64,000 bases of DNA, from the NCBI GenBank assembly GCA_001938485.1, contig MQRK01234846.1, forward strand, positions 1 through 64,000, in the 5' to 3' direction. Positions 6,230 to 59,137 of the stretch are shown here, in pieces. The notes beneath the pieces were generated by a model. The model did not search any database, had not been told where the DNA came from, and saw nothing but the letters and a program-made list of their open reading frames with translations. Within the stretch, counting starts at the first letter, position 1. The number at the start of each line of letters is the position of its first letter. Source of the DNA: Girardia tigrina (taxonomy: Eukaryota). The translations under genes and the position numbers were made by a program.

Positions 6230-8500
6230 TTTAAATTTTTACACATCAGTCTGACAACATTTAAATAAGTGTTTTCTTTTTTTAATTTTTTCTTTTTAAA
6301 TTTTGTCAATCGTTTTTTGTGTTACCACATGAGCCCCCACTGAAGAATGTGGAGCATGGTGAGATGGTATTTGATCGACTGTAGTTGCTGGTCGTTGTCA
6401 TACACTTGTTAGGAATTAAAAATGCTATGAAAAATTTTGAAAGAAGGTTATATTAAATATGTACAAATTAAAATTTTTATATAATTAAATATGTAACGTT
6501 TGAAAAAATAAAATTACTAAAATTAAGAAGAACAATTAAATTACTAATAATAAAATTTTTTGAGAGTTTTTAATATAATATAAAAAGTAAAATGTATAAT
6601 TTTTATGTGGATCGATTTTAAAAAAAATAATAAAATTAAATGAAACGATTAAATATTTTAAAATGTTATCGTAATTTAAAATTGATTTTTAAAAGTAATG
6701 AAAAAATCAAATATGAATATTTATAAGTATTTTTATTTATATCGGTTTAAGATTTATAAAACAAATTGTTTCTCAAAAAAAGGTGTGTTTAAATATTAGC
6801 TTTAAACATTTTTTGTGTAGTATAATAAAAGTTTTGATGTCAGAAATATCTCATAGTAATAATTCCGACGATGTCCCTAGAACCTCTAATAACACTATTT
6901 GACATAACTCAGTTAAATTGCGACATATGTTGTTTTTTTATTGTTTTTGGTGTGTGTACAGTTGTTTTACTGTATTGCGCGTGTGTGGTGGCGGTTCCCG
7001 TGCTATCGGGATGGTGGGAGGCATGATCGGAGGAAAGTTCCTGTGCTGGAGTTCTTGAGGTATTATGTAGCTCCTAGTGGGATTCTGTTACTCGTTCGTC
7101 CATTCTGGGCTGCCCATGTCTTGATAGTAAGTATGAGGAGGTCGTGTTCACTGACATGGAGGTCATTTCTGGTGGAGTTCTTTTAGATGGTGATGAAATT
7201 GCGGTCATTGTTGTCATAAACGCTCTCAGCATGGCTTTCTTTGTTGTCCTTGTTGTTGATGGTGTGGACGTGCTGTTTCTTATCATCGACAGGCTGTGTT
7301 TTGTTATCTCTCTCGGTGATAATATCATTGTTGATAGTGATGGTGATGTGGTTATCAACGTCGGCGTATCAGTGTTCTCGTGTTGGCGGTGGGTGTTGTT
7401 CGTGAAGTCACCGTACGGAGTGTCATGGTTGGTGTAACTGTGGCTGCTGTCGTGATCGCTGCAGCTGTGATTGTGATTGTCATCGATGCGCTGAAATTGA
7501 TGCACTTGTCGGGAGTTTTTCTTTGTATATGATTGTGGTATTTGCAGTGATTGATGTGACTTTGGTTGTTTTGGTGGATGGTGTGGCGGTGTGTAACTAT
7601 ATGACGTTCAAATCTGCAAACGTAGCAGCAATTGATCTCACCTACGTCATTTGCTTCTGCCATGAGGGATGTAACTAGTTTTTTGGTCGTGGTGCATGTA
7701 TCCGGGCATACAGTTCTTCTCGTCGATCCCAAATTTTGCGTGCCAGATGTCCACGTCATTAGTCTGTAGCTCTGATCGATCCCTAAAAAGATGAACCCTA
7801 GTTGGCATTTCCTAGCTGATTTGCCAAACCGACGGTGGACACAGTGAGACACCCTTTAGTAACGGAGAAGACGGTGGTGTTTGTAAGTAGTGTTTATGTC
7901 ACATTCATTATTATCAAATTCAGAACTCATAATTTCACACCACAATATTTATTATAACAACAATTCACATATTTAAATAAATTTTTTTGTTAATTCAATT
8001 ATCTCGCAACAATTAATCTATTAAATTCTTATCTATTCAATAATTAAAATTTAGCAAATTTTAAACTTTAAATTTATTAAATAATTTTCACATTAAAACT
8101 AAACATTGTTTCATAACTTATATTAAAATATATAAATTGTTATGACTGTAAAAATATTTTTATTTATAAATAAGTATTTAATCTTAATTGGTTTTTTTAA
8201 CTTTAAGATATTTAATAGATACATTAAAAAACATTTTTTTATTTTTAAATAAGTATTTGATTTTTTAATAATTTGCTTTATTATATCATTTTTAATTTTA
8301 AAATATTTAATAAGCATAATAATTTAAAAATATTTTAACTTTTAAATTAAAAGAATAATAAATTATTTTGGCTAAATGCAAATTTAATTTAACCCCCATA
8401 GTGTTGTTGATATTCTGTTTTGATGTTAAGTGGCTAGTGTCTACCCCGTACGATTTTGTGAGCCATGAGCCGCAACGTGGTTGAGTTATGGAGAGTCCTC
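6230..8500 (-). mobile_element. 3' region of an LTR retrotransposon (PPT, LTR start, Thr/His-rich low-complexity region), interrupted by a solo LTR
   Basis: accacatgagcccccactgaagaatg..agcatggt (about 6324-6360) matches the PPT/LTR junction at 17780-17815. GC-richer 6940-7880 encodes a T/H/N-rich ORF (7074-7505). Confidence 0.55.
7882..8400 (-). mobile_element. Solo LTR, TA...CA family, copy A
   Basis: tgtaagtag...aacccccata flanked by 5-bp TSD gtgtt; homologous to copies at 14315, 38320 and 58539. Confidence 0.85.
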
Positions 8501-14314: not shown

Positions 14315-14975
14315 TGTAAATAGCGTTGCCACTTTCATTATTATCACATTCTAAAGTCATAATTTAACACCACAAAAATTTATATTCACAATTCGTATAC
14401 TTAAACAAATTTCTTGTTACTTCAATTATTTCGCCCAAAATTAGTTCATTAAATTCTTTCGATTAAATTTTGAAAATATACAAAAATTTAAATCTTAAAT
14501 AATCTTATATTTTTTACAAAAATTTTACAATATTTTGATCTTAAATAATCTTATATTTTTTACAAAAATTTTACAATATTTTGATCTTAAATAATCTTAT
14601 ATTTTTTTACAAAAAATTTTACAATATTTAAATCTTAATTAATCTTATATGTTTTACAAAAAATTTACAAATTTTTAATGTAACCAAATTTTACATTCTT
14701 ATGAAACTTAATCATAAAACTAATTAATTTAAATTTACAATAACCATTTTATTAAAAAATTATTTCTGAGAATATTAATCCGTTAATTAAAATTTATTTA
14801 GCTTATTCTATAACTTTTATTAAAATATGTTAATTGTTATTACTGTAAACATATTTTAAATAAGTATTTTTTTATCATATTTTTACTCTACATTGTAATT
14901 GTTAATTTATTTCTTTTAAATTTTCAAATTAAAAAAATAAACTATTTTGGCGAAACTTAAAACTAACCCCTCATA
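14315..14975 (-). mobile_element. Solo LTR, TA...CA family, copy B, with internal ~45-bp tandem repeats
   Basis: tgtaaatagcg...aactaacccctcata, 5-bp TSD atagc (14310-14314 / 14976-14980). Confidence 0.85.
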
Positions 14976-15470
14976 ATAGCCAGGATACCATATATTTTAT
15001 CAACTTTTTGTTTTATAGTAAAACTAATATTTCAAATTCTTTTGTTTTATGTAACATGTTAAGTGTTTAGCTCAAAAAAGAAACAAATTTCTTATCGGCT
15101 GAAGCAAGTCTTTGAGTTATAACATCATTTAGTAAAGAGTTTTTAAAAAAACGTAAAATATAATATAATTATTTGGTGATTTTTCAGTTTGTATCCTTTT
15201 CGTTCTTTGCGTTTCTCTATTTGCTTTCCTTCAGTCAGATAGACAAACATTTACTGTTTTAATCTTTCCCATTTTGAGGAAATAACTTTAATTATTATAT
15301 TGATAAAATAATAACAAAATAAACAATATTTTTGTTGAAAAATGAAAAATGATGAAATATAAATTTAATTGAAAAAGTGAAAAAGTAATTTTATGATAAA
15401 TTCTTTTTTGGACCTTTGAGAATACGAAAGAATATCCATTGTTTGCAATAAATAATTGAAATACGAATAG

Positions 15471-17741: not shown

Positions 17742-18958
17742 TTTTTATGTTTTTTTATTTCTGTTTCAATTATTGGAGCACCACATCACCCCCCGCCGAA
17801 GAATGCATAGCATGGTATGTGTGTCCGTCCGGCTGGTTTAGGAGGCTGGCAGTGTCAGGGGGTCCATTTAACGAAATGCAGCTGAGCTGTGTTGTGCGAT
17901 GTATTGTTAATATTGTTGTGTATGTCAGTTAGAGCTGTGGCATATGATAGTGAGCTGTCTGTTGTTGTTATGTTATGAAGGTGCAAGTTATTGTTCTGTG
18001 TGCTACTTGGCGTTGTTGCCAAAGCGTGTTGGGCGGACGATGGTTCATTGAGATAGGCGTCTTGTTGTCCTACCTTTGTTGGGAGGCGGTTGTGTGTTCT
18101 TTTCGTTGGAGTAATTGTTGTCCGCCTGTGACTTGGTTTCATCCTGGGTAATATGCTCCAATTGTCGGTAGGCCTTGAGCTTGCAGATATTCACAGTGAG
18201 CCCTTGACGTGGGCCAAAATTTTGACTGGGTTGTTGTTGAATGCGATGTTTAGAAACTTGTGTCGTTTGGTGTAGTTATCTTCTAGAGAGGTTGCGGTTT
18301 CTTTTTGGAGTCAGACAAACTTTGCGGTTGCAAGTTCTTTCGGAACAAAGATGTACTGTCCCCCAGGATTGGGTGTGGTTCTGTCGGCTTGCAGAAAGTG
18401 GTCGTGTGCTACTGTGAGCATCTCGTTCTTTGGTGCCTCATTACAAAAGAGGTTGTTGTTGAACGAGGTATTTGTCCTGAAGAGCAATTGGGCAGGCTAG
18501 GTACCATATCTGCTATGAGGAATGTTTCTCCAGTCTAACAAAATGATTGGCAGCTGTTTCGCCCAGTCGTGTGAACGTGCTACCCGAACGGTTTTTTTAT
18601 TAGGGTGCGGTGAAACCGTTCTATAAGACCGTTAGTTTGCGGGTGGTACGTGGGGATCCTGATTTTATGTATACCAAACTATTTGGTGAGTTCCCTGAAT
18701 AACTCCGACTCAAATTGCTGTCCTTTTGGGGATGCTGAATCGTGAAATACTGTGATTCACGAATATCTCAATGATTATGTCGGTTGGCAGTGTTCTGATC
18801 GGGAAGGCTTCGGCCCACCTAGTATTCTTGTCAAGAATGGTGAGGATTTACCTGTAGCCATGTGACGCTGGAAGTGGCCCAACGATGTCCATGTGCACCT
18901 TGTCAAACCGACTGCCGGAGGGATACGTCAAAGAGGGCGGCTTAGTGTGCTTTGTAAC
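17742..18958 (-). mobile_element. Ty3/gypsy integrase relic with long 3' region, PPT and LTR start
   Basis: VTKHTKPP..RFDKVHMDIVGPLP..LTILDKNTRWAEAFP..YHPQTNGLIERFHRTL; PPT at 17786-17800. Truncated by the element starting at 18959. Confidence 0.85.
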
Positions 18959-20662
18959 TGTAACAACGAATCACAAATCTATTAAAATATATTTTTCACT
19001 AACAAATACTTTAAAATAGACATTATTTAAACAAATAATTATCCATATTTTTTCATGTTAAATATTTCATTTGAGAAATAAATTTAACATGTAACACTCC
19101 CCCCATATTCTTCATCACAAGAATCTATATCTACTACATACTCGTTCAAATATTTCGGTTTTCGTCTTTCTCTTTGGGGTCTGTTGCTGATTCCCGATTC
19201 ACTTTGCTTAACACTCGGAACTGATTCGTTGTTATTTTCCAACATGTAATCCGAGTAAAAGTTTCTCGGCAGGTCTGGTTGTCTTGGTCGAATATCTGCT
19301 ATATACCGTGGACCGCAAAAACCATCACAATTTATTAAGTACTTTCTTTGATCCAATTTTCTAACGACAACGCCTCTTGTCCATTGCTTTGTACATGGCA
19401 TATTATTTTCAGGCTTTACCCAGACTAACTGTTGCTCTGCGAAGTCTGCCTTTACCTTATTGTAAACCGGATCCTTTTCAATTCTTTCGATTATCTCCAA
19501 ACCGACTGGAATGTACTTGTAAAGTCCTGAACTAGGTGTCTCCTTTCCGTCGGACGGTGTATTGTTATACCACCATAAGGCTTCCATGATACTGATATTC
19601 GATCGAGACGCAATTCTCTTGATTGTCTTATGATTTCTCTCTATTNNNNNNNNNNNNNNNNNNNNNNNNNNNNNNNNNNNNNNNNNNNNNNNNNNAATTC
19701 TCTTGATTGTCTTATGATTTCTCTCTATTATTCCGTTGCAATTTGGTCGATTAATAGCGCGGTATAGGACATGTACATTCCATTTTTCCATCAACTTGCT
19801 GAATTCGGCTGAATAAAATGTATAATTGTCAATAATCAACTCCTTTGGAGATCCACGCTCGCAGAACAAATTTGAAAACTCTGTAATAATCGACTTGACA
19901 TCCTCAGCTTTGATTAGTTTCCATACTGCAAATCGAGAGGGTCCACAATCAATGATACTTAAGAATTTTTGTTGATCAAATTTTGTGACATCCGCTNNNN
20001 NNNNNNNNNNNNNNNNNNNNNNNNNNNNNNNNNNNNNNNNNNNNNNTTGTTGATCAAATTTTGTGACATCCGCTGCAAGTCTTGTCCAGTTTTCATTAAC
20101 AGCTAATTTTCCAGTTTCCCATTTTATTGTTGCCGGATCAATAGATTGACAACTTTGACACTTCGAGATCAAATCCTTTATATCCGTATTTGACACATTT
20201 ATTTCCAGCTTATCGCACTGATATCGCATTCTCTTTGCACCTAAATGACATCTGTCATGAAGTTTCTGTAGTTTGAATATGTCATCTGTTACAGACAAAA
20301 GGCAACTGCTTCGTTTTAATTGTTTGGGTATTCTTGTCAGTTCATCAGCCTTGTTGTCTTCACTATTAACAAACTCAATTTTCAAAGTTATTTCGTATTC
20401 CTGGCATAACTCCTTAATCATTGACATTCGGCGCTTTATCAAAAGCTCGGAAGAGGCTTTCGTGTGTAATTTATTTCGGTCTGATAGTGCCTCAGTTATC
20501 CAAGAAACAACTGATTTGTTATCTGATTTTACTACAACATTCGTTAGTCCCCATTTAATACACAGATTTAGACCATTTACAACTGCTTCGAGTTCTGCTA
20601 CGTTTATGTGCCTAGAATCATCAGTTTTCCTTAACCACGATGCGTCTTCTATAATATTTCCT

Positions 20663-21786
20663 GGAGCGGAGAATTGCCAATTTGACCGAACATTTATTTT
20701 TGCCAGTTTCAAGGAAAGTGTATAATTAAATTAAATAATTAAATTAATAATTAATAACTAAATAAATTAATTAAATGATTAAATATAAAAATAAAATAAA
20801 TAAATTAAATTAATTAAATGTAAAATAAAAAGTCAAAATAAAATTAATATTTGGATTTCCTTTCATGCTTTTAAACCCATTTTAATTTGTTTTCTTTCAA
20901 TCAATTTCAATCGATTGATAACTGTCGACGGATTAGTTTTTTTAGTTTTGGTGATGCGTCTTTGTTCGTGAATGATTCAAGTATTCATATTTGATTGTGT
21001 AATTTTGAACTGTCGAAACCGATATAATTGAACAAATGGTGAGCCTCATTTTTATGTATGAATGCTGTGTGAATGTCTGGATTGCGTGTGTGTATAAATG
21101 AAATTGGGATTGGTTTGAATGTGTTAGCGTGTTTGTGTGTTTAATGATAATGTGAATGCGATTGGTTAAGTGTGTGTGTGGTGTGTAATTTGTTTTTAAA
21201 AATGAAATTTTGTCAGAATTAAAAAAAAATGGTGGTTTGAAAATTTCAATTTAAAAAAAATTGTTGAATAAAAAAATTGAAAAATCGGATATTGCCTTTA
21301 TTTTGTTTTGCAAAAAAATTGACGGCAAAGTGAACCTAAAATCAAATTTAAATTAATCGAAAAGTGATAAAGAAACGAAAGTTTATAGAGCTAAATTAGC
21401 TGAACAGGCTGAAAGATATGATGAAAATGGTTGATGCGATGAGAGATGTCGCTAAAATGACCGGCGAATTGAACATGATAGAGCGTAACTTATTATCCGT
21501 AGCATATAAAAACGTAATCGGAAGTCTGAGAGCGTCGTGGAGGATGATGAGTAGCATCGAACAAAAAGATCCTTCTCGACTTCCATTGATTAAAGCCTAC
21601 CGAAGTAAAATTGAAAGAGAATTGAAAGAAGTCTGCGCTGATATAATAGCCTTACTCGATGAGTTCTTGTTGGACCCTTCAAATGGCGGTGAAGCTAAAG
21701 TGCTCTTCTTAAAAATGAAAGGCGATTATTACCGTTTTCTGTCCACCTCTCTTCCTACAAAATCGTGGAGACACGGATTCCTGTCC
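20663..21786. mobile_element. 1.1-kb insertion in the RNase H of LTR copy 1, carrying a 14-3-3 fragment
   Basis: Absent from copy 2 (uninterrupted ataatatttcctttaac near 56263-56279). 7-bp TSD atttcct (20656-20662 / 21787-21793). GGA...TCC ends. Confidence 0.85.
21363..21744 (+). pseudogene. 14-3-3 protein, N-terminal half (frameshifted, truncated)
   Basis: VYRAKLAEQAERYDE/MV..ERNLLSVAYKNVIG..RASWR..KMKGDYYRFL. +1 frameshift near 21426; homology ends after DYYRFL. Confidence 0.93.
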
Positions 21787-23992
21787 ATTTCCTTTAACTT
21801 CCAATGCTGCCCCAATGGCTATCGAACTGGCATCACACCATATGATGCCGTCTTTACAATCATCAATACTCCATATTCCTCTACAAGGATCTTCCTCCTT
21901 AACTTTTTTCAAAACAAATTTGATTTTTTCCAATAATTCGACATCTATTTTTTCATCCCATTTTCCTTCACTAAGCCTTTTCATGTAGTAGCATGATGGA
22001 CGTAACCAACCAGCAACAGGGTGGATTCCTACTAATTGGCCACACATTGAATATAACTCGCGACGCGATATTGATTCGGCAACTATCTCGTCCTTGAAAT
22101 TATTATCTCTCATCCATCTCACTGAATTCTTATCTTTAAAGACTTTAACTCTCAACACTCATACATCTTTATCCATTGAGAGATTTTCTGGTTTTTTGCA
22201 TTTAAGACTAAATTTCTCGAACAACATTCTAATTTCGTCAACTGTGATTGTAGTTTCGTCAACGTAAATGCCATCGATGTACGAGTTGGTGTTTTCACGT
22301 ACTCTAGGATCAGAATTTAAAATCCACTTTACAATTTCAGTCATAATCGTCGGAGTGATATTTAAATCAAAGCCATCCTGGTTAGAGCGTACTTTTTTCC
22401 ATTAATGACACATGATTGATAACGCCACATTTCCTTGTGGACGCGAATCTGCATATACGCCTCTGATAAATCAAGCATGGAAAATCTTGATTCTTTTCGC
22501 CGCCAGGTACGAAGTTTTTCCAAACATATATCTGCTGAGTCACTGTACACGTCTACATAATTGTTCAATTTCCTAAAATCAAAGATCGGTCTTATCTTGG
22601 ATTTGTTAACTTGCAATATTCCAAATATGGGTATAGATCCTATCGATTTACCCATTTCCTTCACGTCATAATCGATTAAATAGCCCTTCTTCATCCACTC
22701 CTCAAGGATTTTCATTGTGGTTATGTCTTTCGATTTGTCATCCTTAAAGGTCGAATATCGAATTGGTAGATAAATCGGCGCTTCATCTTTCCACTTCCAT
22801 TTAACTGTCCAATTATCCTTAAATTCAATCTCATAATTGTGTTTGTTCAGGCTAACTCTTGGCACAACACCCGTGACACAACTCATATTGTCACCAGCCT
22901 TCTTTTGTCCTTCTCCTACACACACCAAATTCGATAACACCCTTATTAATTTTCACACCCCCAAGTTCACTTATAACATCCATACCAATTAAAATTCCCA
23001 AATCCTAGGGTAAGTATTTCATGACAGAACATTCTACTTTCTATTGTCTATAGTCAATTCCACGTCACTAATCCCTACACATATATCATCGCCATTAGCC
23101 AAAACAATTCTTTGCTCATTTGACTGTAACGAGTTTCCCTTGATCAACCCTTTCAAAACAACAGTTTTTGAGCAACCTGAATCNNNNNNNNNNNNNNNNN
23201 NNNNNNNNNNNNNNNNNNNNNNNNNNNNNNNNNNNNNNNNNNNNNNNNNNNNNNNNNNNNNNNNNNNNNNNNNNNNNNNNNNNNNNNNNNNNNNNNNNNN
23301 NNNNNNNNNNNNNNNNNNNNNNNNNNNNNNNNNNNNNNNNNNNTTATTTGTCCATTAGATTGCCGCTGAGAATTTTCATAACGGTTTACCCTTGTTTGTA
23401 CCAGATTTCCGTCATGTGGCACACGGGGTTTTGTAAAGGAACTCCTTCTATCGCCGCTGACCGCACCTCGTTCTTTAGAAACGATATTTCCATCACCAAC
23501 GTTTTGTACCGCTGACATTGAACTTTGTGTGACGCATTTTTTAATTCCTAAATACCTACGACTATATTCAACCATTTCGGTTAAATCTTGATCTCCGACC
23601 TGCTCNNNNNNNNNNNNNNNNNNNNNNNNNNNNNNNNNNNNNNNNNNNNNNNNNNNNNNNNNNNNNNNNNNNNNNNNNNNNNNNNNNNNNNNNNNNNNNN
23701 NTCCTTCGTAATATTTCAAATTAATCAGTTGGCTGTACGCAGATCGTCTGGTTAATCCGAATGAATTGTTCAAGATTTGCAGTACTTCTTCACAGTTGCT
23801 CTGTTTCTTTTCATCCAATTTCATGTATATATTTAACGGAACATCAGTCAACAAAAAAGGAAGATATTGGGCCGGATCCAAAATCCCATGGATTTTCATA
23901 ATCATCTTGAACTTTTTCTTCCAAATTTCAAAACTGCCGTTTCCATTAAATTTCTCCAAATGATCGGTATAATTTTTAAATCGCTTATCATT

Positions 23993-24004
23993 GCCCGGAT
24001 AGCT
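23993..24004 (-). promoter_or_regulatory. Putative primer-binding site AGCTATCCGGGC, complementary to nt 1-12 of tRNA-Lys(UUU)
   Basis: Directly abuts the 5' LTR end (..TTACA). Identical in copy 2 (59089-59100). The + strand reads GCCCGGATAGCT, the conserved 5' end of metazoan tRNA-Lys(UUU) as I recall it. Confidence 0.65.
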
Positions 24005-24047
24005 TGTAACAACGAATCACAAATCTATTAAAATATATATATTAAAA

Positions 24048-24086
24048 TAACCTTAACCCTAACCTAACCTAACCCTAACCTAAACT
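24048..24086. repeat. Short TAACC/TAACCC telomere-like tract
   Basis: taaccttaaccctaacctaacctaaccctaacctaaact. Confidence 0.7.
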
Positions 24087-24099
24087 ATACCATAGATAT

Positions 24100-24530
24100 G
24101 AATTGACCCTACTGACGCATCCATCTTCTCATCATCATATTCGACTAAATACCCATTTTTTATCCACTTGGTTAGAATCTCCATTGTTGATTTGTCTTTC
24201 GACTTTGACTCCTTCAAAACTGTATTTCTCCTCGACAAGTACTCAGGCGCATGAGATTTCCAGCTCTAGGAACAGCCCACACTTTATCGATTACGTCATT
24301 ACCAATAACACATCCTCCACGTCAAACACAACGGTACACGTGCCTACTGGCACCCGCAACCCGTTGGCTAACGTAACGTTATCCTGCTGCTGCTGTATCG
24401 ATGCTTCATCCACAAGACTTTTTCCATTCAATCTTTTCACGACCGAACGAGAGCATCCGGTATCCACTAAAGCTTTTCCCGTTCACAACGCATCGAATCA
24501 CCGGAAGCGCTTTAAATCCCCCCGAGAAGC
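24100..24530 (-). mobile_element. Retrotransposon aspartic protease relic
   Basis: Minus strand LPVIRCVVNG../ALVDTGCSRSVV..VTLANG. Confidence 0.7.
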
Positions 24531-38319: not shown

Positions 38320-38750
38320 TATGAGCTTACTAAATATTTTAAAAATTAAAAATTATATAAGAAAAGAAAATCATAAAAAAGTAAAATATTTATTTAAAAA
38401 TAAAAAATATCTTTAATGTATCTAAATAATATTAAATATCTAANNNNNNNNNNNNNNNNNNNNNNNNNNNNNNNNNNNNNNNNNNNNNNNNNNNNNNNNN
38501 NNNNNNNNNNNNNNNNNNNNNNNNNNNNNNNNNNNNNNNNNNNNNNNNNNNNNNNNNNNNNNNNNNNNNNNNNNNNNNNNNNNNNNNNNNNNNNNNNNNN
38601 NNNNNNNNNNNNNNNNNNNNNNNNNNNNNNNNNNAATTAACAGGAAAATTTGTTTTAGAAATGTGAATTGTTATATTAATAAATTTTTGTGGTGTTAAAT
38701 CATGGCTCAAGAATATGATAATAATGAAAGTGGCATAAACGCTACTTACA
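38320..38750 (+). mobile_element. Solo LTR, TA...CA family, copy C
   Basis: tatgag...gtggcataaacgctacttaca, 5-bp TSD tacac; contains an N gap. Confidence 0.8.
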
Positions 38751-54830: not shown

Positions 54831-57800
54831 TGCAACAACGAATAACAAATCTATAAAATTTATTTTTCAATAAAAAATACTTTTAAATAGATATTATTTA
54901 AACAAATAATTATCATTATTTTTTCATGTTAAATATTTCATTTAATAAATAAATTTAACATGTAACACTCCCCCCAGATTCTTCATCACAAGAATCTATA
55001 TCTACCACATACTCGTTCAAATATTTCGGTTTTCGTCTTTCTCTTTGGGGTCTGTTGCTGATTCCCGATTCACTTTGCTTAACACTCGGAGCTGATTCGT
55101 TGTTATATTCCAACATGTATTCCGAGTAAGAGTTTCGCGGCAAGTCTGGTTGTCTTGGTCGAATATCTGCTATATGCCGTGGACCGCAAAAACCATCACA
55201 ATTTATTAAGTACTGTCTTTGATCCAATTTCCTAACGACAACGCCTCTTGTCCATTGCTTTGTACATGGCATATTATTTTCAAGCTTTACCCAGACTAAC
55301 TGTTGCTCTACGAAGTCTGTGTTTACCTTATTGTAAACCGGCTCCTTTTCAATTCTTTCGATTATCTCCAAACCGACTGGAATGTACTTTTAAAGTGCTT
55401 AACTAGGTTCTCCTTTCTGTCGGACGGTGTATTGTTATACCACCATAAGGCTTCCATGATACTGATATTCGATCTAGATGCTATTCTCTTGATTGTTTTA
55501 TGATTTCTCTCTATTATTCCGTTGCAATTTGGTCGATTAATAGCGCGGTATAGGACATGTACATTCCACTTCTCCATCAACTTGCTGAATTCGGTTGAAT
55601 GAAATGTCGTATAATTGTCAATAATCAACTCCTTTGGAGATCCACGCTCGCAGAACAAATTTGAAAACTCTGTAACAATCAACTTGACATCCTCAGCTTT
55701 GTTTGTTTCCATACAGCAAATCGAGAGGGTCCACAATCAATGATACTTGATTTTTATTGATCAAATTTTGTGACATCCGCTGCAAGTCTTGTCCAGTTTT
55801 CATTGACAGCTAATTTTCCAAATTCCCATTTCATTGGCACCGGATCAATAGATTGACAACTTTGACACTTCGAGATCAAATCCTATATATCTGCATTTTG
55901 ACACATTTATTTCCAACTTATCGCACAGATATCGCATTCTCTTTGCACCTAAATGACATCTGTCATGAAGTTTCTGTAGTTTGAATAGGTCATCTGTTAC
56001 AGACAAAAGGTAACTGCTTCGTTTTAATTGTTTAGGTATTCGGAGCTTTATCAAAAGGTCTTAAGAGGCTTTCGTGTGTAATTTATTTCGCTCTGATTGT
56101 GCTTCAGTTATCCAAGAAACAACTGATTTGTTATCTGACTTTACTATAACATTCGTTAGTCCTCATTTAATACACAGATTTAGACCCTTTACAACTGCTT
56201 TTAGTTCTGCTACGTTTATGTGCCTATAATCGTTAGTTTTCCTTAACCACGATGCGTCTTCTATAATATTTCCTTTAACTTCCAATGCTGCCCCAATGGC
56301 TGTCGAACTGGTATCACACCATATGATGCCGTTTTTACAATCATCAATACTCCATATTCCTCTACGAGGATCTTTCTCCTTAACTTTTTTCAAAACAAAT
56401 TTGATTGTCTCCAATAATTCGACATCTATTTTCTCATCCCATTTTCCTTCACTGAGCCTTTTCATGTAGTAGCATGATGGACGTAACCATCCAGCAACAG
56501 GGTGGATTCCTATTAATTGACCACACAGGGAATATTACTCGCGACGCGATATTGATTCGGCAAATATCTCGTCCTTGAAATTATTATCTCTCATCCATCT
56601 CACTGAATTCTTATCTTTAAAGACTTTAACTCTCAACACTCATACATCTTTATCCATTGAGAGATTTTCTGGTTTTTTGCATTTAAGACTAAATTTCTTG
56701 AACAACATTCTAATTTCGTCAACTGTGATTGTAGTTTCGTCAACGTAAATGTCATCGATGTACGAGTTGGTGTTTTCACGTACTCTAGGATCAGAATTTA
56801 AAATCCACTTTACAATTTCAGTTATAATCGTCGGAGTGATATTTAAACCAAAGCCCATCCTGGTTAGAGCGTACTTTTTTCCATTAATGATACATGATTG
56901 ATAACGCCACATTTCCTTGTGAACCCGAATCTGCATATACGCCTCCGATAAATAAAGCATGGAAAATCTTGATCCTTTTCGCCATCAGGTACGAAGTTTT
57001 TCCAAGCATATATCTGCTGAGTCCACTGTACACGTCTACATAATTGTTTAATTTCCTAAAATCAAAAATCGGTCTTATCTTGGATTTGTTAACTTGCAAT
57101 ATACCAAATATTGGTATAGATCCTATCGATTTACCCATTTCCTTCTCGTCATATTCGATTAAATAACCCTTCTTCATCCACCCTTCAAGGATTTTCATTG
57201 TGGCTATGTCTTTCGATTTGTCATCCTTAAAGGTCGAATATCAAATTGATAGATAACTCGGCGCCTCATCTTTCCATTTCCATTTAACCGTCCAATTATC
57301 CTTAAGTTCAATCTCATAATTGTGTTTGTTCAGGCTAACACTTGGCACAACACTCGTGACACAACTCAGATTGTCACCAGCCTTCTTTTTTCCTTCTCCT
57401 ACACACACATACCAAATTCGATAACACCCTTATTAATTTTTACACCCCCAAGTTCACTTATAACATCCATACCAATTAAAATTCCCAAATCATAGGGTAA
57501 GTATTTCATGACAGAACATTCTACTTTCATAGTTCTATTGTCTATAGTCAATTCCACGTCACTAATCACTACACATATATCATCGCCATTAGCCAAAACA
57601 ATTCGTTGCTCATTTGACTGTAATGAGTTTCCCTTGATTAACCCTGTCAAAACAACAGTTTTTGAGCACCCCGAATCTATCAACGCTGTAACCGACTTGA
57701 TGTTAACAATGACAGTCATGGTTGGCAGCGCCGGAAATGTCAGAGGGAGAGAGCCGGCGCCTACAAACTCCCCTGTCCGTTTCCCGACTTGCAATATTTT

Positions 57801-58338
57801 GCAATATGTCCAACTTGCTTACATTTATGGTAAATTATTTGTCCATTAGATTGCCGCTGAGAATTTTCATAACGGTTTACCCTTGTTTGTACCAGATTTC
57901 CGTTATGTGGCATACGGGGTTTTGTAATGGAACTCCTTCTACCGCCGCTGACCTCACCTCTTTCTTTTGAAACGATCTTTCCATCACCAATGTTTTGTAC
58001 CGCTGACATTGAACTTTGTATGACGCACTTTTTAATTTCTAAATACCTGCGACTATATTCAACTATTTCGGTTAAATCTTGATCTCCGGCCTGCTCTAAA
58101 TTCAATTGCAACTCGAAAGGCAATCCAGCCATAAAGGCTGCCTTGGTCAGATCGTTGATTTTTGATGTTAACATCTTTACTTGAGAAACGTAATTGTCAA
58201 TAGTTTGTCCTTCGTAATATTTCAAATTAATCAGTTGGCTGTACGCAGATCGTCTGGTTAATCCGAATGAATTGTCCAAGATTTGCAGNNNNNNNNNNNN
58301 NNNNNNNNNNNNNNNNNNNNNNNNNNNNNNNNNNNNNN

Positions 58339-58375
<37 letters not shown>

Positions 58376-59137
58376 ACGGAACATCCGTCAACAAAAAAGG
58401 AAGATATGTGGCCGGATCCAAAATCCCCTGGATTTTCATAATCATCTTGAACTTTTTCTTCCTAATTTTAAAACTGCCGTTTCCATTAAATTTCTCCAAA
58501 TGATCGAGTATAATTTTTAAATCGCTTATCATTGCCCGTGTAAGTAGCGTTTATGCCACTCAGTATTATTGAATTCCGAAATCATAGTTTAACACCACAA
58601 AATTTATTAATATCAACAATTCACATATTTAAACAAATTTCGGCCAAAATGAATTCATTAAATTTTTTCGATTAAATTTTGAAATTTTACGAAATTTAAA
58701 CCTTAAATTATTTTACATTTATTTCGAAAATTTTATCATAACTAATTAATTTAAATTTACAATAAACCCTTTTATTAAAAAATTATTTCTTAAAATTTTA
58801 ATCCGTTAATTATTTATTTTAAAATTTATTCAAACTTATTTCATAAATTTTATTAAAATATATCAATTGTTATTACTGTAAGCATATTTTAATTAAGTAT
58901 TTATTTTATCATAGCGTTTATGCCACTTTCAGTATTATCGAATTCCGAAATCATAGTTTAACACCACAAAATTTATTAATATCAACAATTCTACATTTTA
59001 GTTTTTTTAATTAATTTCTTTTAAATTTTCAAATTAAAAAATAATAAACTATTTTAGCGAAACTTAAATTTCAACTAACCCCTTTATAGCCCGGATAGCT
59101 TGTAACAACGAATAACAAATCTATAAAATTTATTTTT
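54831..59137 (-). mobile_element. Compact LTR retrotransposon, copy 2 (same family as 18959-24038)
   Basis: 3' LTR 54831-54967, PPT, truncated 5' LTR 59101-59137. gag ATG 58532; CCHC-like HKCKQVGHIAKYC; PR ALIDSGCS; RT YIDD; RNH; IN. Multiple frameshifts. Confidence 0.93.
58539..59088 (-). mobile_element. Solo LTR, TA...CA family, copy D, inserted at the PBS of LTR copy 2
   Basis: tgtaagtagcg...aacccctttata; 5-bp TSD gcccg (58534-58538 / 59089-59093); internal duplication of its first ~85 bp near 58910. Confidence 0.88.

Follow-up and report, generated by a model that had tools for sequence, protein, structure and literature searches.

The window, a 64,000-nt stretch of Girardia tigrina DNA, carries two broken copies of one LTR element. 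Copy 1 runs along the minus strand from 24038 to 18959. Its 5′ LTR is reduced to 34 nt of the 3′ end (U5; 24005–24038), which on the element strand finishes in ..TTGTTACA. A 12-mer (23993–24004), the putative primer-binding site (PBS), follows the terminal CA without a gap, and then come a single A (23992) and the gag ATG (23991–23989). This arrangement, described in an earlier note on this DNA, was confirmed with an LTR edge that is fixed independently, since the 34 nt preceding the site recur without change as the last bases of the 3′ LTR (18959–19096; 138 nt, TG...CA). The gag region (23184–23991) has a frame broken close to its start and contains two N gaps. Pol (19146–23183) encodes protease, reverse transcriptase (RT), DUF7047, RNase H, and integrase, with frameshifts and stops, and a polypurine tract (19097–19104) stands directly before the 3′ LTR. 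An insertion of ~1.1 kb at about 20662–21786 interrupts copy 1 within its RNase H coding sequence and is missing in copy 2. By eye, a broken Gypsy-type integrase and a purine tract were seen just downstream of the 3′ LTR (17785–18958, minus strand). Upstream of the 5′ LTR remnant, the interval 24040–24520 (minus strand) holds a TTAGG/TTAGGG-like run and what looks by eye like a piece of another element's protease.

Copy 2, also on the minus strand, has the same 12-mer at 59089–59100, flush with an LTR end remnant from 59101 onward. The 12-mer was found at only these two places, 23993 and 59089, in a window-wide match. The earlier note had reported this second occurrence correctly; it was silent on the loss of all but 34 nt of the 5′ LTR in copy 1 and on a 550-nt insertion (58539–59088) that in copy 2 separates the site from the gag ATG and is flanked by a 5-nt duplication of the last bases of the site. 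Parts of the insertion recur at 7882–7984, 14315–14987, and 38646–38750. The body of copy 2 (54831–58533), a broken gag-pol with a 3′ LTR, is ~94% identical to copy 1, and reading frames are broken in both copies.

The 12-mer is the complement of nt 1–12 of tRNA-Lys(UUU). Joined to CA, it occurs at four places in the 1.43-Gb host genome, and all four are the start of a tRNA-Lys(ttt) gene called by ARAGORN. The earlier note had given this 5′ start for metazoan tRNA-Lys(UUU), and these four host genes begin with exactly those 12 nt. Among the host tRNAs fetched, Lys(UUU) nt 1–12 gave the longest complement to the junction in the window, with all others reaching at most 8 nt. The chance of a 12-nt match is 4.5e-9 per given site, with 0.0006 expected across the window. 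The base past the site differs between element types and does not track the leader of the tRNA gene and, therefore, the partner is the mature 5′ end of the tRNA. Half-tRNA priming of the copia type was rejected because the complement ends at Lys(UUU) nt 12 and not at the anticodon stem.

Across the host genome, the junction of the 12-mer with TG was found 2,183 times, compared to 0 for a reversed control. All 30 fetched junctions of this Lys type continue into a gag-like start. By eye, they sort into at least eight LTR/gag types that differ in their LTR ends and gag starts and have only the 12-mer in common. To avoid selection on the site itself, copies were also picked by pol, with 20 copies taken out of 150 pol matches. 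The junction lay within the fetched stretch in eight of the 20 (five exact and three with one mismatch), and the other 12 were without it. A 5-nt target-site duplication (TSD) flanks three of the four host copies in which both LTRs are complete. In most host element types, the gag ATG is 0 to ~10 nt past the site.

A second class of junction in the host genome is of tRNA-Phe type, with 1,368 pattern matches compared to 188 for the control. Among the first 100 matches listed, 77 are one sequence, nt 1–12 of host tRNA-Phe, and 15 more are a CpG-type transition away from it. A gag profile match was found behind 19 of 24 fetched junctions of this type. No whole host tRNA-Phe gene was called by ARAGORN, and its identity was taken from gene pieces in which this head occurs together with the anticodon GAA and with a 3′ strand able to pair with the 5′ end. 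One host tRNA-Phe gene (G000:C181207; L200, L201) is split by an intervening ~1.8 kb that comes with a 16-nt duplication. Several more Phe heads and tails (L169, L170, L175, L202, L203) break at the same point, which suggests an element that targets tRNA-Phe genes. Patterns for Thr and Ile tRNAs showed no enrichment in the host genome (151 matches vs 359 for the control).

Relatives of the pol protein include named proteins from a crab, a barnacle, a bryozoan, and a leafhopper, and a 123-aa query returned 225 protein clusters (50% identity) at E ≤ 1e-10. A pol alignment scan of metagenomes found 77 loci at 31–44% identity, and a gag start is present in 59 of them. The site precedes it in 56 (51 by pattern and five by eye), while two are cut by the contig end and one, L073, is without a site. 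In this pol relative, a gag profile match is present but the 150 nt upstream hold no tRNA-5′-type site. One additional junction, L059, lies at a contig end. In three relative contigs with both LTRs, the repeat has CA as its last bases and the site directly adjoins them, and CA precedes the site in 54 of 57 relatives. TGG directly after the LTR was seen in 0/57 relatives and 0/8 pol-selected host junctions, which rejects canonical priming by a tRNA 3′ end. The relatives thus go against a refuting condition of the earlier note, namely unconserved or canonical TGG sites in other family members, and the 12-nt tRNA-5′-type site is kept.

The 52 distinct junctions of the relatives were compared with 17 5′ 12-mers of host tRNAs, a partial set from one host. 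Thirteen were exact (11 Phe, one Lys(UUU), and one Lys(CUU)), 10 had one mismatch, including the Met-type L095 and the Tyr-type L107, 28 had two, and one had three. In a control of 14,054 other CA sites, none matched with one mismatch or fewer and 10 matched with two. The isotypes whose tRNA 5′ ends are equalled or approached by sites of the relatives are Phe, Lys(UUU), Lys(CUU), Met, and Tyr. Twelve of the 28 two-mismatch junctions are exact to the human tRNA-Phe 5′ end as given in an excerpt of PMC10505166. What speaks against a tRNA 5′ match is that 29 of the 52 sites are two or more bases off every host tRNA compared and that 17 of these 29 had an exact tRNA in no source compared, the tRNAs of their own hosts lying outside the set. 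Variation in the site falls on the positions facing the acceptor stem, and conservation drops right past position 12, a profile that is partly imposed by the search pattern, as the pattern behind the 51 junctions fixes 7–8 of the 12 positions. In L095, site position 1 has changed together with G12 of the Met-type tRNA. In the RT tree, a Phe-type clade encloses the Lys-type family of the window, and the remaining Lys- and Met-type elements lie elsewhere, although the root is weak. The tree implies switches of isotype with the register kept.

The general features of an LTR retrotransposon are all present in this lineage: direct LTRs (TG...CA; 138 nt in the window), a polypurine tract, a TSD, gag, and pol in the order protease, RT, RNase H, integrase (PR-RT-RH-IN). 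In a Pfam scan of 27 proteins, DUF7047 was found between RT and RNase H in all 27, and Gypsy-type RNase H (PF17917/PF17919), Peptidase_A17 of BEL/Pao (PF05380), and RVT_2 of Ty1/copia were each found in none. The order PR-RT-RH-IN agrees with Ty3/gypsy (Metaviridae). The GPF/Y module of that group is generally lacking, with GP[FY] near the C end in six of 161 proteins. Ty1/copia membership was ruled out by the domain order, in which the integrase does not precede RT, together with the lack of RVT_2. The lineage also differs from BEL/Pao in having no Peptidase_A17 match; the RNase H profile was weak on host Gypsy and BEL loci, with one BEL locus as the best host control at 13.8 bits. RT profile scores were likewise weak on these host controls (≤27 bits on Gypsy loci and ≤24 bits on BEL loci). 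With by-eye comparison, the RT was seen to share an RPVLD motif with DIRS-1. DIRS-like elements, in contrast, do not have the DDE integrase and direct LTRs found here, and membership was rejected on the rve and integrase zinc-finger matches, with no tyrosine recombinase or other recombinase family among the matches.

There is also a resemblance in organization to Troyka/Kuafuorterviruses, which in excerpts of PMC12440569 and PMC11673190 are compact animal LTR elements with PR-RT-RH-IN that fall outside Gypsy, BEL, and Copia and mostly lack GPF/Y. According to the same excerpts, Troyka has CG...CG ends, a 3-bp TSD, and xADD, whereas our lineage has TG...CA ends, a 5-bp TSD, and YxDD. YIDD, YVDD, YLDD, and FxDD prevail in the RT motif, and an xADD string occurs in two of 161 proteins. 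Membership of Troyka/Kuafu was ruled out by the CA end, the TSD, and the RT motif. The excerpts of the Troyka text (PMC12440569) do not mention a tRNA, a primer, or a PBS. Six RT motifs of the lineage matched only DIRS and Cer in the RT sets of the PMC11673190 supplement, and a PDB search gave only distant integrase and RT matches. The RT tree places 67 lineage rows apart from three host Gypsy rows, which are the sole outgroup and sit on a saturated branch; a filter for unbroken RT kept these 67 rows, three of 14 Gypsy loci, and none of eight BEL loci.

The presence of a tRNA-5′-complementary site at the LTR edge was confirmed, and the site is very probably the PBS for the minus strand, with a 5′ piece of a tRNA as the primer. 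This reading is based on the position of the site, its 12-nt length, the stop at tRNA nt 1, the mismatch of nt 13 with the LTR terminal A, the switching of isotype in a fixed register, and the intact catalytic motifs of RNase H in the lineage. The earlier note had proposed priming by a 5′ piece of tRNA-Lys(UUU). Its match at the site is supported, but the limitation to Lys(UUU) did not hold, since other isotypes occur in the same register. Three conditions that the note had named as refuting were checked, and none came true: host tRNA-Lys has this 5′ end, the relatives retain a 12-nt tRNA-5′-type site and lack TGG, and the complement of the 12-mer does not occur in the element. Its interpretation is supported in a form that extends to the whole lineage and several tRNAs.

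How such a primer could be made is constrained by its geometry. The 3′ end of a primer adjoins U5 and defines the right edge of the LTR. Here, tRNA nt 12 lies at the U5 edge, where an intact tRNA is unable to prime, and so the tRNA must be cut. Nucleotide 13, a C in host Lys, Phe, and Met tRNAs, faces the LTR terminal A and, thus, the duplex ends at nt 12. In our main reading, to which we give a probability of roughly 0.55, the 5′ end of the tRNA would anneal to the site and the RNase H of the element would cut the tRNA after nt 12. The element RNA, probably with the help of nucleocapsid, would invade the acceptor and D stems and pair with their 5′ strands, and RNase H would then cut at the end of the RNA–RNA duplex, between nt 12 and 13. 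As in Tf1 with its own RNA, the cut would leave a 3′-OH against the LTR edge, and the resulting 12-nt 5′ tRNA fragment would prime the minus strand. The 5′ end of the tRNA could then serve as the natural stop for plus-strand strong-stop DNA.

Annealing of the tRNA 5′ end to the site appears to be energetically favored in a nearest-neighbor model with unmodified RNA, in which the duplex has −25.5 kcal/mol, compared to a cost of ~15.6 to free nt 1–12, and the cofold has −44.0, compared to −39.3 for both RNAs alone. The cutting step rests on the analogy with Tf1. Among 161 pol proteins, the individual catalytic motifs of RNase H, the putative cutter, were seen in 158, 160, and 146. An RNase H-type cut would leave a 3′-OH directly. 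Conservation of the site and the one covarying case point to a primer end at nt 12. Another possible explanation is that the primer ends at nt 10–11 and that integrase trims the product. Candidate traces of primer copying into the site comprised six of Lys(CUU) type, beside nine transitions and two other transversions, and no Phe-type swap was seen in the window's family. A tRNA bound at the site may also shut off gag translation, as the gag ATG is a few bases away.

The same primer could instead be made by the host, with a nuclease yielding the 12-nt fragment and the element capturing it. RNase P mis-cleavage, an RNase A/T2-type enzyme with end repair, and trimming of longer 5′ fragments are candidates for this activity. 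The evidence for the site itself counts equally for a fragment made in this way, but elements that use five isotypes in a wide range of hosts all keep the 12-nt register, and this fits cutting at a duplex end. To our knowledge, the known short 5′ tRNA fragments are all longer than 12 nt, which also argues against a host-made primer. With nt 1–12 held open, the tRNA (unmodified RNA, no CCA) was predicted to gain no helix between nt 13 and the 3′ end of the sort that RNase P needs. The tRNA half of copia type, cut in the anticodon stem, is a precedent for cutting of the host type (excerpt of PMC6317226). With the precedent of Tf1 and the intact RNase H motifs, a cut by RNase H after annealing is favored, and a host-made fragment is considered unlikely, though it is the strongest of the alternatives.

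It is improbable that the site binds the tRNA 5′ end for another purpose, such as packaging, dimer linkage, or a block of the gag start, with a protein or an unknown RNA whose end has this sequence as the primer. A bound tRNA could affect translation, given the short distance to the gag ATG in most host types. However, the U5 edge is set by the 3′ end of the primer, and the site was flush with that edge in every case read, nearly always behind CA. No second candidate site was found there, and an unknown primer RNA would need to resemble the 5′ ends of several different tRNAs.

Self-priming of the Tf1 type, from the element's own transcript, is very improbable. The 12-nt length and the flush position do resemble the Tf1/Tj1 sites (excerpts of PMC4600332 and PMC5445492), but a self-primer needs the complement of the site in the 5′ LTR, and it was absent from the window's LTR, where the longest match is 5 nt. 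Exact upstream matches in the 57 relative contigs reach 7 nt at most, and a copy with one mismatch or fewer was found in one contig. Unrelated LTRs also carry the same site, and we rejected self-priming, as the earlier note had done for this element. Chance or a selection artifact is next to negligible; the first genome search was queried with the site itself, but the site was also found in host copies and relatives selected by pol, with controls near zero.

The nearest precedents are Tf1/Tf2/Tj1 and Tf1/sushi, which are self-primed Ty3/gypsy elements (excerpts of PMC4600332, PMC5445492, and PMC6317226). In Tf1, a cut frees the first bases of an RNA, and these serve as the primer (excerpts of PMC4600332 and PMC5445492). 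Our lineage shares with these elements a short site flush with the LTR, pairing with the first bases of an RNA, and the need for a cut past the duplex to release the primer. It differs in that the pairing partner is a tRNA of the host, in trans, rather than the element transcript, and in that it is not a chromovirus lineage and lacks the Gypsy RNase H markers. The title of a 1996 paper by Levin reportedly names the RNase H domain as the cutter.

Half-tRNA priming is used by copia and Ty5. Among Ty1/copia lineages, it is also described for Osser, Bryco, and Bianca (excerpt of PMC6317226). The likeness to these elements is that the primer would be a 5′ tRNA piece from an internal cut. In half-tRNA Ty1/copia elements, however, the tRNA is cut within its anticodon stem and it is an internal stretch that pairs with the site, whereas our site pairs with nt 1–12 and a cut in the D stem is proposed. 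The isotypes here (Phe, Lys, Met, and Tyr) and the PR-RT-RH-IN order differ from theirs as well. Tor elements of Oikopleura are reported to be primed by the 5′ portion of the spliced-leader RNA. If this is right, an abundant RNA of the host would supply a 5′ piece as their primer too, but that RNA is not a tRNA and the elements are of Gypsy type.

According to a survey of plant elements, primers are of three types: the whole tRNA, a half tRNA cut at the anticodon, and a self-primer (excerpt of PMC6317226). Priming by tRNA nt 1–12 is none of these, as it combines a Tf1-like geometry with a copia-like tRNA piece and is a member of neither. We tentatively propose, at somewhat less than even odds, a fourth primer class in which an RT-RNase H makes a 12-nt 5′ primer from any of several host tRNAs with a D-stem cut where an RNA–RNA duplex ends, and which defines a widespread, unclassified, DUF7047-marked superfamily of compact animal LTR elements. 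No description of tRNA-5′-end priming or of the lineage was found in the literature outside subscription journals, Repbase/Repbase Reports, and bioRxiv supplements. Excerpts of PMC7472051, PMC12451622, PMC13524379, and PMC4402516 do not describe this priming mode. A search with the site sequences gave no match on retrotransposon PBSs by title and abstract, and three site sequences were not found in the PMC13524379 supplement. We think it rather doubtful that the mode has been described elsewhere. PBS searches that use tRNA 3′ ends only, as in an excerpt of PMC13524379, cannot see such sites, and this may explain why no paper searched turned up a lineage with thousands of junctions in one genome and 225 protein clusters.

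If the main reading, a tRNA 5′ end annealed to the site and cut by RNase H, is true, it would add a fourth primer type and a bridge between tRNA priming and duplex cutting of the Tf1 type. It would predict a tRNA-cutting activity of an RT-RNase H and would directly involve 5′ tRNA fragments in retrotransposition, or in defense against it. A modified base would no longer be needed to stop plus-strand synthesis.

Two minor observations concern the wider lineage. In the ESM Atlas, the clusters closest to the RT-RNase H part (P0003, P0033) are unnamed and have a few members labeled Euglenozoa or Mollusca, which is a lead. Also, many of the relative contigs (L053–L129) are circularly permuted units of ~4 kb, which are either collapsed repeats or one-LTR circles.
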